This document shows, in pieces, positions 11,100 to 15,030 of a stretch of DNA of 64,000 nt. The notes below the pieces were generated by a model that saw nothing but the letters and a program-made list of their open reading frames with translations, did no database searches and was not told the origin of the DNA. How positions within the stretch are numbered: the first letter of the stretch is position 1; each line of letters starts with the position of its first letter. The translations under genes and the position numbers were made by a program. Source of the stretch: Truepera sp. (GTDB taxonomy: Bacteria; Deinococcota; Deinococci; Deinococcales; Trueperaceae); the NCBI GenBank assembly GCA_965218435.1, contig CBDCKW010000009.1:1152001-1216000 (forward strand). The letters run 5' to 3'.

Positions 11100-12044
11100 A
11101 TGGCGCTAGACGACATCTTGATCTTCGGCGGTTCAGGCAGCCCTAAACTCACCCGGCAGATCGCTCACTACTTGGGACTCGAGCCGGGTCTAGGCGAAGT
11201 CTTGCGGTTTTCTGAAGGGACGTTGTTCGTGCGGATTTTGGAGAACGTCCGGGGCCGCCACATCTACCTCGTGCAGTCTACGGCGTTTCCTGCCAACGAC
11301 AACTTTATGGAACTGCTCTTTTGGGTTGACGCGTTTCGGCGGGCGAGCGCCGAGTCGGTGACCGTCTTGATGCCCTACTTCAGCTACGCCAAAGGCGACA
11401 AAAAGGACGAACCGCGCGTCTCGATTCGTGCCCGCGTCTGCGCGGACGCCATTGAAGCAGCGGGAGCCGACCGCGTAGTCACGCTCGACCTGCACGCCCC
11501 GCAGATTCAGGGATTTTTCAAGCTTCCGGTAGACGACCTCTACGCGCTGCCGGTATTGGGTGAGGCGGTCCAAAAGTTGCAACTGCCCGACCTGGTGGTG
11601 GTTTCACCCGATGCCGGGTTCGTCAAAAAAGCGCGGCAGTACGCCTCACTCCTGGGCGCGTCGCTGGCCATTGGGGATAAAGAACGTAAAACTCACGATG
11701 AGAGTGCCGAAGTGCTCGAGCTTATCGGCAACGTCTCCGGTAAAACGGCGCTCCTCGTTGACGACGTGCTGCTTTCCGGCGGGACGCTCGTCGAGATGGC
11801 GGCCAAGCTGTTAGAGGCAGGCGCGCGCGAGGTCTACGCGGCGGTGACGCACGGCGCGATTTCTGAGCGGTCACTAGGGCGGCTGACTGACAGCCCCATC
11901 CGTAAGCTCTTCATCACCGACTCTATCGAAACGCAACCTGTGGCGTTACCCGAAATCGTCGAGGTCGTTTCGGTTGCCCCACTTTTTGGCGAGGCCATCC
12001 GGCGGATTCACGATAAAGAGAGTATCAGCGTGCTGTTTCAGTAG
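11100..12044 (+). CDS. prs: Ribose-phosphate pyrophosphokinase
   Basis: ENVRG, PYFSYA, DLHAPQIQGFF, VSPDAG, LVDD..SGGTL. Confidence 0.9.
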   Translation: MALDDILIFGGSGSPKLTRQIAHYLGLEPGLGEVLRFSEGTLFVRILENVRGRHIYLVQSTAFPANDNFMELLFWVDAFRRASAESVTVLMPYFSYAKGDKKDEPRVSIRARVCADAIEAAGADRVVTLDLHAPQIQGFFKLPVDDLYALPVLGEAVQKLQLPDLVVVSPDAGFVKKARQYASLLGASLAIGDKERKTHDESAEVLELIGNVSGKTALLVDDVLLSGGTLVEMAAKLLEAGAREVYAAVTHGAISERSLGRLTDSPIRKLFITDSIETQPVALPEIVEVVSVAPLFGEAIRRIHDKESISVLFQ

Positions 12045-12056
12045 GTTGGGAAGGTT

Positions 12057-12137
12057 TAGGTTCTAAACAGCACATCTTCACGCCGAAAACTGCGTAACGC
12101 AAACCAGAGCAGCAGCGCCGCGAGTAAGAGGCTCGAG
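12057..12137 (-). repeat. Orphan copy of the last 81 bp of the ABC permease gene (direct repeat of 12969-13049)
   Basis: 77/81 identical; all 4 mismatches synonymous; identity ends at CTCGAG. Confidence 0.95.
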
Positions 12138-12152
12138 CCCGTTGTGCTGGCG

Positions 12153-12644
12153 TTAAGCTCGAGTGGTCGCTCGTCGTTCCGGCTTGGGTGCTGCTTCGGG
12201 TGCTGCAAAACTAACTCTCAGCTCAGTACCTAAAACCTCCGCAACGCGGTTTAAGGTCTTAACCGAATGGCCCCAATAAAACGGATTGGTCAGCCTGCTT
12301 ACGACCGAACGAGAGGTGCCCAACCGCTTGGCAAGTTCGCTCGGTTTGACGCCGAGTTGCTCGAGTTCTGCTGCCAGCGTAAGTGAAACCGGGTTGAGTG
12401 GCGCAGGTTCGACGTAAACGACCATACTGCCCGCTTCATAGTTAGACAGGTCAATGTCCACGTCGTCTAGCGGAGCTGGTGGCGTTTCGTTACGTTCGGC
12501 GTAGCTGTGCAGCTCGAGCGCAAGTTGTTCAGCCATCAAGCGCCCTAGTTCAGCGCGGTTATTTGCAGTTGCCAGCGTTGCAAATTGAACCGCGCTAGCT
12601 GCTAGGTTAAGCCTAGCGGGTTCGATGACGAAGGGATATTTCAT
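12153..12644 (-). CDS. hicB: HicB-like antitoxin with C-terminal XRE HTH
   Basis: MKYPFVIE start, ETPPAP, C-terminal HTH (SELAKRLGTSRSVVSRL); follows hicA. Confidence 0.75.
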   Translation of the reverse strand: MKYPFVIEPARLNLAASAVQFATLATANNRAELGRLMAEQLALELHSYAERNETPPAPLDDVDIDLSNYEAGSMVVYVEPAPLNPVSLTLAAELEQLGVKPSELAKRLGTSRSVVSRLTNPFYWGHSVKTLNRVAEVLGTELRVSFAAPEAAPKPERRATTRA

Positions 12645-12675
12645 CTTTTCCTTTCTGCTGTGGTGTCCTAAAACG

Positions 12676-12867
12676 TTATTTAAGGCCAGCTTCTTTGAGA
12701 ATCTTGTTTAGCGTCCCTTTAGGTACCTCATCTGAAAGCTTGCCTGCAATGGGGATGGGGCGTCTTGCCCCCGGCCTGGTGTACTGCCGATGACTCCCCG
12801 TCTGCCGAGTCTGTGCCCAACCGCTCGCCTCGAGCAGCTGCAGCTTGATAAGGTCTTTTACCTTCAT
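12676..12867 (-). CDS. hicA: HicA family toxin (mRNA interferase)
   Basis: MKVKDLIK...GW...TGSHRQY...EVPKGTLNKILKEAGL, typical HicA with GSH motif. Confidence 0.9.
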   Translation of the reverse strand: MKVKDLIKLQLLEASGWAQTRQTGSHRQYTRPGARRPIPIAGKLSDEVPKGTLNKILKEAGLK

Positions 12868-12893
12868 AGCGCATGGTAACAACGATACCACAT

Positions 12894-12911
12894 GTTAGCA
12901 AAATTGCTAAC
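12894..12911. promoter_or_regulatory. Palindromic operator upstream of hicAB
   Basis: GTTAGCAA-aa-TTGCTAAC perfect inverted repeat. Confidence 0.7.
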
Positions 12912-12967
12912 TGTTCGCCAATTGTCTGCCAATTGTCAGCTACCGAGTACGGACTGATATGTGTTCG

Positions 12968-14191
12968 CTAGGTTCTAAATAGCACATCTTCACGCCTAAA
13001 ACTCCGTAAGGCAAACCAGAGCAGCAGCGCCGCGAGTAAGAGGCTCGAGGCCCACGCCCACACTGCCAACTGCGGGTCGAAAGCTCCCTTTACGGTGTCG
13101 TTCATTAAGAGGAGTGTGCCGAACGCGGGAAGCGCGTAGACGACCGGACTCGAGCCGAAAAAGTCTGAAAACTGCAAACTCACGACCGGCAACACCAACA
13201 CAAGCGCGAGCGGTGCGACGTAGCTCTGCGCTTCTTTGAAAGAGCGGGCGAAAAGCGTGATGGCGATGAGCAGCGCCGCGACGAGCGCCGCTAACAGCAG
13301 GGCGCTCACCAGCAGGGCGAAAAGTTCACTCGGACGAACCCGCAACGTGCCGCCGAGACCTTGGGCGATGCCCCCCGCACTGCCACTTAACCGCCCCCCA
13401 AATGTGGCGCTTAAGAGCCATCCGCTTCCTAAGAACCCGACCAGCGCTACCGACGCCGCGCTCAGGCCGAACAGCAGGGTTGCTAGAAACTTCCCGACGA
13501 CGACTTCCGAGCGCCGCACCGGAGCTACAAGGAGCGCCTCAAGCGTGCCACGTTCTTTTTCCCCGGCTGTCGCGTCAATGGCCACCATCTGCCCGCCGGT
13601 CAGCGTCCAGATCATTACGAAAAAGGGAATTAACCAGCCGAGTGAGCCGCTCGCACGCTCCGCCGGGGTGCTTGCGTCGCGGGTCTCGAGCCGAATCGGA
13701 GTAAGGACTTCGGGAACCAATCCGGCCCGCTCAATCCGCTGCCGTACCAGCGACTTCTGAAAGGTTTCAACCGCTCCGGTGAGCTTTTCGTTCAAGAGTT
13801 CGTCGCGTAAGCCGCCGCTTTTACGGTAAAGCACGAGCGGCGCGGTGCCCTCGCGCAGGTTTACGGCAAAACCTTGCGGTACCCTAAAGGCACCTTTGAC
13901 CTCTTCTGTGCGCACGGCCGCTTCAGCGTCCTTGACAGAAATCAGCTCAATGTTTTTACGTTTTAAGGTCTGGACAAACGCTGGCGGCAAGCGTTCCAAC
14001 CCTTCAGCCCCGACCGTCGTACTCTGCAGCGCCTCGCGGCCGAACAGCCCGCCGAGGAGCAGCGGCAAACCGAGCATCACGAGCGGCAACACCACGAGTG
14101 GAATCAGCAAGTTGGCGAGCACGGCGCGGTGGTCTCTTAGGGTCGCTAAAACTTCGCGGTGCGCGACGGCCCAGACGAGTCCGGGCCTCAC
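12968..14191 (-). CDS. ABC-2 type permease (NatB-like)
   Basis: AIDATAGEKERGTLEALL, ARSFKEAQSY, multiple TM helices. Confidence 0.9.
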   Translation of the reverse strand: MRPGLVWAVAHREVLATLRDHRAVLANLLIPLVVLPLVMLGLPLLLGGLFGREALQSTTVGAEGLERLPPAFVQTLKRKNIELISVKDAEAAVRTEEVKGAFRVPQGFAVNLREGTAPLVLYRKSGGLRDELLNEKLTGAVETFQKSLVRQRIERAGLVPEVLTPIRLETRDASTPAERASGSLGWLIPFFVMIWTLTGGQMVAIDATAGEKERGTLEALLVAPVRRSEVVVGKFLATLLFGLSAASVALVGFLGSGWLLSATFGGRLSGSAGGIAQGLGGTLRVRPSELFALLVSALLLAALVAALLIAITLFARSFKEAQSYVAPLALVLVLPVVSLQFSDFFGSSPVVYALPAFGTLLLMNDTVKGAFDPQLAVWAWASSLLLAALLLWFALRSFRREDVLFRT

Positions 14192-14946
14192 AGCTTGGCC
14201 TTTGGTGTAACCGTATCCGAGCGGCTCAAACTGCGTTCGACGAGGGTAAAGAAGGCGGTCTCGAGCCCCCGCGCCCCAGTCTCCTGAACGAGCTGCGCGG
14301 GCGTCCCTTGCGCGATCAGCGTCCCCTCATAGAGGATAGCAACGCGGCCGCACAGTTCTTCAACTTCGCTCATCACGTGCGTCGAGTAGAGCACGGTGCG
14401 CCCCGTCGCCGCATAGGTTTTGACAAATTCCAACACGCTCCGCCGCGCCATCACATCTAAGCCGCTGGTCGCTTCGTCAAAAAAGATGATCTCCGGGTCG
14501 TGCAGCACTGCGCGGGCGATCACAATTTTTTGCTTCATGCCGGTGGAAAAGTCGCCCGCACGTTTGTCGAGTGTGCCTGCTAACTCGAGCAGCATATCGA
14601 GTTCGCCGATCCGTACGTCTGTTTGAGTCCGTGTCAGGCCGTAAAGCCGCCCGAAGTAGCGGAGGATTTCCCGTCCGCTCAGGCGGTCGTAAAGGCCCAT
14701 CCCACCACTGACGACCCCGATCCGCCGCCGCACCGCTTCGGGGTCTTTGAGCACATCGAAACCGCCGACCTCCGCGCACCCTTCGGTAGGGGAGAGCAGC
14801 GTCGCTAAAATACGCAGCGTCGTCGTTTTCCCCGCACCGTTCGGGCCGAGGAGCCCGAAAACTTCACCGGGAGAGACAGAGAACGACACGCCGCGGAGTA
14901 CGGTCGTCTCGTCAAAGGTTTTACCTAAAGCTTCGACCACAATCAT
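14188..14946 (-). CDS. ABC transporter ATP-binding protein (NatA-like)
   Basis: GPNGAGKTT, FSTGMKQK, FFDE; leaderless TATGAT 6 nt before ATG 14946. Confidence 0.92.
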   Translation of the reverse strand: MIVVEALGKTFDETTVLRGVSFSVSPGEVFGLLGPNGAGKTTTLRILATLLSPTEGCAEVGGFDVLKDPEAVRRRIGVVSGGMGLYDRLSGREILRYFGRLYGLTRTQTDVRIGELDMLLELAGTLDKRAGDFSTGMKQKIVIARAVLHDPEIIFFDEATSGLDVMARRSVLEFVKTYAATGRTVLYSTHVMSEVEELCGRVAILYEGTLIAQGTPAQLVQETGARGLETAFFTLVERSLSRSDTVTPKAKL

Positions 14947-15030
14947 CTCTGCATCATAGGGCGCACCGGGCCGCCTGAAGTTACGCACTTTCACGTCTGC
15001 GGCACTTCCGCCGCAACCTTATGACGGCGC

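Follow-up and report, generated by a model that had tools for sequence, protein, structure and literature searches.

How can a lone toxin-antitoxin (TA) gene pair enter a bacterial chromosome and leave a duplicated gene end behind, with no recombinase beside it? This question is raised by a locus of a Truepera sp. genome (G000, 4.8 Mb) in which a hicAB pair lies between prs and an ABC-2 type permease gene, and in which the 3' end of the permease gene is present on both sides of the pair. We analysed the 64-kb window that holds this locus (C9:1152001-1216000 of G000), with the features collected in Table 1. The first-pass annotation had described two 81-bp direct repeats (12057-12137 and 12969-13049), which we confirm with a spacing of 912. 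Between the two copies lie solely hicB, hicA and an inverted repeat, amounting to an insert of 0.83 kb. The permease itself has full-length matches in 56 of 61 genomes, a count that takes in weak paralogue matches.

Table 1. Features of the prs-permease locus, in window positions.
Feature	Position	Strand	Basis
prs, ribose-phosphate pyrophosphokinase; ancestral neighbour, convergent to the permease	11100..12044	+	Pfam
Copy B, orphan permease 3' end (GGG-CTCGAG to TAA)	12056..12140	-	Repeat comparison
CTCGAG at the novel joint; duplication edge within 0-3 nt	12132..12137	.	Repeat comparison
Spacer from hicB stop to joint; ends in CAAC	12141..12152	-	Sequence
hicB antitoxin, HicB-type N-terminal domain and HTH	12153..12644	-	HTH_3 (Pfam); profile, fold, homologues
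hicA toxin, 63 aa	12676..12867	-	PF07927, E 3.2e-16
Inverted repeat upstream of hicA, candidate HicB operator	12893..12912	.	Pattern only
Copy A, permease 3' end in current use (stop TAG); CTCGAG at 13044-13049	12968..13052	-	
ABC-2 type permease, intact, 407 aa	12968..14191	-	PF12698/PF12679
ABC ATPase, same operon as the permease	14188..14994	-	PF00005

We assign the gene pair to the HicAB type II TA systems, with predicted toxicity and neutralisation. The gene for a HicA-family toxin (PF07927) precedes the antitoxin gene, HicB profile matches include the HicB structures 6hpb and 6u0i, the top fold matches are HicB proteins, and plasmid homologues of the window HicB carry HicB annotation. 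The pair thus resembles E. coli HicAB (PDB 6hpb) in its hicA-before-hicB order, its HicA-family toxin, its HicB fold with C-terminal HTH and its upstream inverted repeat, which is likely the HicB operator. Unlike E. coli HicAB, the HicB encoded in the window escapes the Pfam and NCBIfam models for HicB, with 21% identity to 6hpb, and its activity is a predicted one. No sigma-70 consensus promoter was found for hicAB and no Rfam family, nor any tRNA in the whole 64-kb window. We considered whether copy B is translated into a small peptide (TTG ORF 12056-12208) and found no support for it. A single-protein query returned no close hicB relatives with context among metagenome or genome contigs, an alignment query gave hicB relatives of 35-60% only, none of them beside this permease or prs, and this hicB is absent from five of five genus genomes examined. 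We also observed a two-residue repeat (LQL) near the start of HicA (window 12829-12850), which appears as a 6-nt gap against an 82% identical relative among the matches listed.

Both copies of the permease 3' end encode SSLLLAALLLWFALRSFRREDVLFRT followed by a stop codon. As first described, all four differences inside the repeat are synonymous and the two stop codons are not the same (TAA in copy B, TAG in copy A), this last difference sitting one base outside the 81-bp repeat (12056/12968). From motif to stop there is no missense change in copy B relative to copy A and all five differences are silent, an outcome with a chance of 0.001 for five random changes. This supports the proposal that the copies are two alleles that evolved under selection; copy B must have been coding until recently, which excludes an old duplication in place. 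The claim that identity ends exactly at CTCGAG did not hold, as the repeat finder extends the repeat to 84 nt. GGG-CTCGAG in copy B also stands in the intact gene of all 10 relatives compared; the full-length permease gene of the window carries a C at -1 of CTCGAG that is private to it, and the joint is therefore placed 0-3 nt outside the motif. GGG precedes 7% of CTCGAG sites. The identical block common to both copies measures 39 bp, and four further CTCGAG sites lie inside the 912-bp unit.

When the ancestry of the alleles was compared, copy B showed the majority state of the 10 relatives at four of six differing sites (two being ambiguous) and was nearer than copy A to all 10, which are not independent of one another. 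At 54 conserved sites copy B has 0 private changes and copy A has 3, against 70/768 for the whole gene. We conclude that the copies are alleles of two lineages and that the locus is a recombinant, in which a chromosome bearing the cassette meets one with the empty site next to CTCGAG. Tests for foreign sequence in the permease and for a lineage break between prs and permease were positive at first, and both signals vanished with leave-one-out controls.

A duplication of this kind may also arise in assembly. The sample, searched as the contigs of two runs (X1 and X2), contains a number of related strains. At 39 bp, the identical block exceeds the contig word size, so that short-read contigs cannot phase it and a circle joint would be hidden in it. 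Against an artefact from mixed strains stands the depth of the cassette, which equals that of its flanks (209-211 vs 200-214 in X2; 41-42 vs 43-46 in X1). Apart from the assembled order, the graph would allow only a free circle whose depth equalled that of the chromosome exactly. Among the matches listed, both copies fall within one 1882-nt contig from a relative. The concern about strain mixing raised at first pass is thus not borne out, and we regard as highly improbable both such an artefact and an old in-place duplication that drifted, as a neutral copy would not give five silent and no missense changes.

We then compared the prs-permease site across relatives, searching those of the same sample at 80% likeness and reading their states from match tables. 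An empty site, for which the first-pass annotation had proposed to look, exists in two genus-level loci (L090 and L093, prs and permease stops 1 nt apart) and in same-sample contigs, which run from prs stop through one base to permease stop (joints 12044 to 12969/12970; depths 189-193 and 28.5 in X2, 23.7 and 8.6 in X1, among the matches listed). These empty sites belong to other species or strains about 88-90% identical, none conspecific. In total, 11 genus-level loci were inspected by ORF (G001-G005, with G003 partial, L087, L089, L090, L091, L093 and L106): two are empty, and the others have different DNA behind the permease and no duplication, for example a fasciclin/CAP-type lipoprotein in G005 (label from ORF reading). 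Within this ORF inspection we found no second permease tail, hicAB or recognisable integrase. From the empty sites and varied cargos we infer that the gap between the convergent stops is a cargo hotspot. The same layout as in the window recurs on the 1882-nt contig (about 82% identical, depth 2.9), which has copy B, then hicB, a gap region the size of hicA, and then copy A with the permease. The neighbour on this contig differs from that in the window, and the copy B differences among the matches listed are all silent. As an observation in its own right, a Shedu (SduA) gene sits at the same permease-prs site at L089:4557-5945, overlapping the prs end.

A third state is that of a cassette-only relative (depths 36.4 and 5.5), in which hicB is 94% identical (14 differences in 216-235 nt) and joined to prs via CAAC, with no copy B and no CTCGAG behind hicB, all among the matches listed. 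CAAC at the end of the spacer in the window also precedes the prs stop, and this relative is either a donor type or the product of a later deletion between two CAAC words. It bears on a mirror event, by which hicAB would have stood behind the native gene end already and an empty-site fragment (GGG-CTCGAG, tail and prs) would have entered by prs-side pairing and joined behind hicB, leaving copy B as the foreign piece and nothing replaced. This event and entry of the cassette give the same product, so that either the cassette or copy B may be the incoming piece. Such an event would account for the cassette without repeat, for CAAC on both sides of the extra piece, for the lack of private changes in copy B and for the GGG of the intact gene before the motif, found at only 7% of CTCGAG sites. 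The same layout in the 82% identical relative would then demand a further, separate event, no lineage break separates prs from permease in the controls, and CAAC fits a later deletion of copy B equally; we consider the mirror event quite unlikely.

Integrase islands that restore the 3' end of their target gene leave a replacement end on one side and the displaced end on the other, and gene-end replacement is their classic geometry. The locus shares this arrangement, the same layout is present in a second lineage and G000 has 23 tyrosine-recombinase matches, all of which speak for an attL/attR remnant of such an island or for a cassette moved in trans by a tyrosine recombinase. The nearest of these matches are 163 and 287 kb away, however, and no large serine recombinase was found in G000, so that the earlier statement that no recombinase lies in or near the unit is upheld. 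In further contrast to integrase islands, the insert is only 0.83 kb, the window has no tRNA, and the larger integrase-bearing island that would mark a plain remnant was seen at none of the 11 genus-level loci inspected by ORF (G003 in part). The parallel cases described below have only six bases in common, and their TA pairs differ in orientation to the target (co-oriented at the permease; opposed at cax, ABC-F and desaturase). Unrelated target genes together with variable orientation argue against a dedicated integrase site, and a recombinase origin appears distinctly unlikely.

The first-pass annotation placed weight on CTCGAG at the junction. CTCGAG is the commonest hexamer of G000 (9883 occurrences vs 1466 expected from base composition, or 1 per 490 bp) and also of G005, so a single junction there proves little; the chance of CTCGAG at an edge is 3%. 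A first edge statistic was dominated by a CRISPR array and was recomputed without it. CTCGAG then lay at most 6 nt from the edge in 9 of 121 local repeats of G000 (CRISPR pairs dropped), giving 10 CTCGAG edge hexamers, in 7 separate loci, vs 1.14 expected. Because CTCGAG is conserved twice as much as the average hexamer (0.0044 vs 0.0021), the expectation rises to about 2.4, with P about 0.04 without the index locus (hand calculation). At the edges of G000-G005 blocks (2130 edges; 2 Mb of G005) CTCGAG was counted 46 times vs 23 expected, and other hexamers were more enriched there, for which a repeat element is probably responsible.

Further gene-end duplications bounded by CTCGAG, a search suggested at first pass, were found in G000 and G001. 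In G000, 11 local duplications of gene tails have left an orphan remnant (a count that left out CRISPR rows and paralogue ends with at least 30 open codons upstream). Three of them start at CTCGAG, all with TA cargo: permease/hicAB, cax around a DUF4258 pair, and a TPR gene whose 3.4-kb insert includes an HTH-PemK pair. The other eight have no CTCGAG at the edge, nor have any of the four tail duplications in 2 Mb (half) of G005. A survey of 74 TA loci of other genomes gave one clear coding-tail duplication, that of an ABC-F gene in G001 with Phd/VapC (VapBC), which starts at CTCGAG to the base; another duplication is a tRNA-like end at a locus without CTCGAG. Without the index case, 2 of 14 start at CTCGAG (P 0.065), and 3 of 15 with G001 added (P 0.009, pooled from the two surveys). 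Decayed cax tails starting at CTCGAG also occur in G004 and G005. Counting the cax remnants of G000, G004 and G005 as three events was rejected, as they are similar to one another and to the G000 gene (35-38/41 nt) and make one or two. Three CTCGAG edge matches among 65 repeats of G005 are diverged paralogues, a TA-bearing repeat locus of G000 (3421.7-3424.7 kb, HigBA by ORF reading) has no motif at its edge, and in G066 a hicAB relative lies inside a 61-bp desaturase tail duplication with CTCGAG in the intact gene only.

The emphasis on the junction therefore survives in part: further tail duplications do start at CTCGAG, while the word occurs every 490 bp and 8 of the 11 G000 cases begin elsewhere. 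The bias appears real but modest, weak or absent in G005, and CTCGAG would be a favoured, not an obligatory, joint. That its presence at the edge is incidental to an ordinary insertion with long target duplication would agree with the frequency of the word and its 3% chance per edge, with its absence from most tail duplications, with the weak replication in G005 and with homology that may extend 3 nt past the motif. We hold this to be unlikely in view of the three further TA-bearing cases that start at the motif, one of them to the base, the pooled 3 of 15, the twofold excess at between-genome block edges and the cax remnants of G004 and G005 that begin there too.

Several observations were made alongside these surveys. 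The cax tail duplication around the DUF4258 pair lies at G000:C9:2338757-2339502, with remnants at L163 and L164; those in G004 and G005 are near an aldehyde dehydrogenase 83-85% identical to that of G000, vs about 77% for cax, which suggests block transfer. At G000:C9:257600-261300, about seven TA pairs stand behind a surface-protein gene with four diverged 45-bp hairpin-like modules between them, a row that looks like serial insertion with target duplication. The module has CTCGAG at both ends and within the genome is confined to this region; there are at least three copies in G004 (L343) and two around one VapBC in G002 (L355). At L066, L070, L060 and L057 (family f5 genomes), with 6-9 CTCGAG per kb, 55-60-bp CTCGAG-bounded modules, similar between two species, recur 3-4 times within 3 kb around HTH/antitoxin genes. 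Non-TA gene-tail duplications without CTCGAG at the edge are found at G000:C9 2731732-2732551, 675753-677163, 639352-642770, 162460-167433 and 1341055-1341869, with aspS, a rimO-like gene and others as targets (labels from ORF reading). Tandem lipoprotein-like genes at G000:C9:1145440-1146358 have in common a 140-bp block of promoter and signal peptide, which in both copies extends one base beyond CTCGAG. Finally, the hexamers GGCGCC, GGGCCC, TTTAAA and AGGCCT are strongly avoided in G000 (observed/expected 0.01-0.12), which points to restriction systems.

Insertion with long target duplication was reportedly described for restriction-modification (RM) genes by Nobusato et al. in 2000. The excerpted text of Furuta et al. 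(2010, PMC2853133) defines the pattern for RM genes, and there as here a small addictive module is flanked by imperfect repeats of more than 30 bp that overlap a gene end, relatives have an empty site, no mobile-element gene is present and the hosts are mostly naturally competent. Our locus agrees in insert (0.83 kb, below the 20 kb of the class), duplication (81-84 bp), empty site and lack of a mobile-element gene. It departs from the RM class in that its cargo is hicA and hicB alone, a type II TA pair without a DNase to make a break, in that its copies are two selected alleles, and in that the joint tends toward one hyper-abundant genomic word. Excerpts of PMC3874152 and PMC2654758 mention long target duplication for RM systems only, and no TA pairs inserted in this way were found in the open literature, in which the supplementary tables of Furuta et al. 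could list further cases. The geometry of the locus thus already has a published name, to which the locus adds a TA cargo and a seemingly favoured, not obligatory, joint at a word resembling a highly iterated palindrome.

Two further systems are relevant. Homology-facilitated illegitimate recombination (HFIR), as the excerpted sections of PMC3240628 describe it, uses one homologous arm and 3-10-bp microhomology and deletes about as much as it inserts. The route proposed below would likewise use a single homologous arm and a short microhomology, of 6-9 bp provided that CTCGAG stood behind hicB in the donor; the cassette-only relative has none there. It differs in that the locus has a net duplication and no loss relative to the empty site, and in that no preferred junction word is described in those sections. 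HIP1 (GCGATCGC) of cyanobacteria is a highly iterated palindrome for which the excerpted part of Elhai (2015, PMC4390886) reports some evidence that recombination and precise insertions occur at the site, and none for a role like that of Chi. CTCGAG resembles HIP1 as a highly iterated palindrome with a strong genome-wide excess, and may also be a place of recombination joints; it is a different word in a different phylum, and the evidence for it consists of natural gene-capture joints. CTCGAG, Deinococcus and Thermus have 0 occurrences in PMC4390886, and we found no description in the open literature of CTCGAG as a highly iterated palindrome, of CTCGAG joints in Truepera or of HIP1 at breakpoints.

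The reading that we put first, with a probability of roughly 0.4, is that hicAB arrived by uptake of DNA from a close relative, with homology on the permease side and the other joint at or within three bases of CTCGAG. More specifically, hicAB would first have sat in the prs-permease gap without a repeat, DNA from a close relative would have been taken up and paired on the permease side, and a single one-armed integration would have created the joint at CTCGAG, with the displaced gene end remaining beside it. The spare gene end could then have acted as a second homology arm, by which the module would pass to empty-site chromosomes through plain homologous recombination; alternatively, the spare end may have been refreshed by homologous recombination. 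A second arm would explain the fresh-looking copy B in two lineages about 18% apart with different neighbours, and loss of the module when the repeats recombine would be countered by the toxicity of HicA. CTCGAG may be favoured because it offers ready microhomology or a DNA end every 490 bp. ComEC and DprA genes are present in G000, from which the host is predicted to be naturally competent.

Entry by homology and CTCGAG microhomology had been proposed at first pass, and the empty site, the two alleles, the missing recombinase and the parallel CTCGAG cases agree with it. The cassette-only relative can be counted in its favour as the predicted donor-type or deleted state. Against it count the donor tract, of which no trace could be seen upstream of the motif under the leave-one-out control, the deletions rather than duplications that HFIR as described gives, and the missing CTCGAG behind hicB in the cassette-only relative. 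A search for AddA in G000 gave sub-threshold matches only, such as also occurred in 13 of 14 control genomes, and lends a Chi-like role of the motif no support.

The first-pass annotation had also offered a circle, in which a fragment with the gene end and hicAB would close at two CTCGAG sites and integrate by one crossover in the 39-bp identical block. This would yield the same product as the linear route, a palindromic end can self-anneal, and there is a precedent in E. coli, where trimmed linear DNA was recircularised and integrated with 109-950-bp duplications (excerpted sections of PMC3240628). A circle would have to pass over all four CTCGAG sites inside the unit, the private C at -1 is on the side of copy A and fits a longer donor tract somewhat better, the depth over the cassette shows no excess, and G000 has no XhoI-family nuclease while that of G001 is broken. 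We therefore judge the circle rather unlikely. In the nuclease search, XhoI-family matches were found in 3 of 41 genomes; the gene at L153 (G001) is broken by stops in a CTCGAG-rich genome. A model of XhoI-type restriction fragments was rejected on the absence of such a gene from G000 and on the four internal sites.

Uptake from a close relative with a joint near CTCGAG, our preferred reading, bears on how lone chromosomal TA pairs arrive without a mobile element and on the role of highly iterated palindromes. The locus links both questions through natural joints resolved to the base, and a single sample shows the site empty, with the cassette only and with the duplication. If the CTCGAG bias is incidental, the locus would be a clean instance, with TA cargo, of an insertion pattern already known. 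A bolder view, which we find possible though tentative, is that CTCGAG may serve the Trueperaceae as a recombination signal, a Chi-like stop or a site of nicking by which the joints of foreign DNA are set. Through one such joint, which duplicates a gene end, TA pairs would become recombinase-free integrative cassettes, portable between species by homologous recombination via the spare end and held in place by toxicity.
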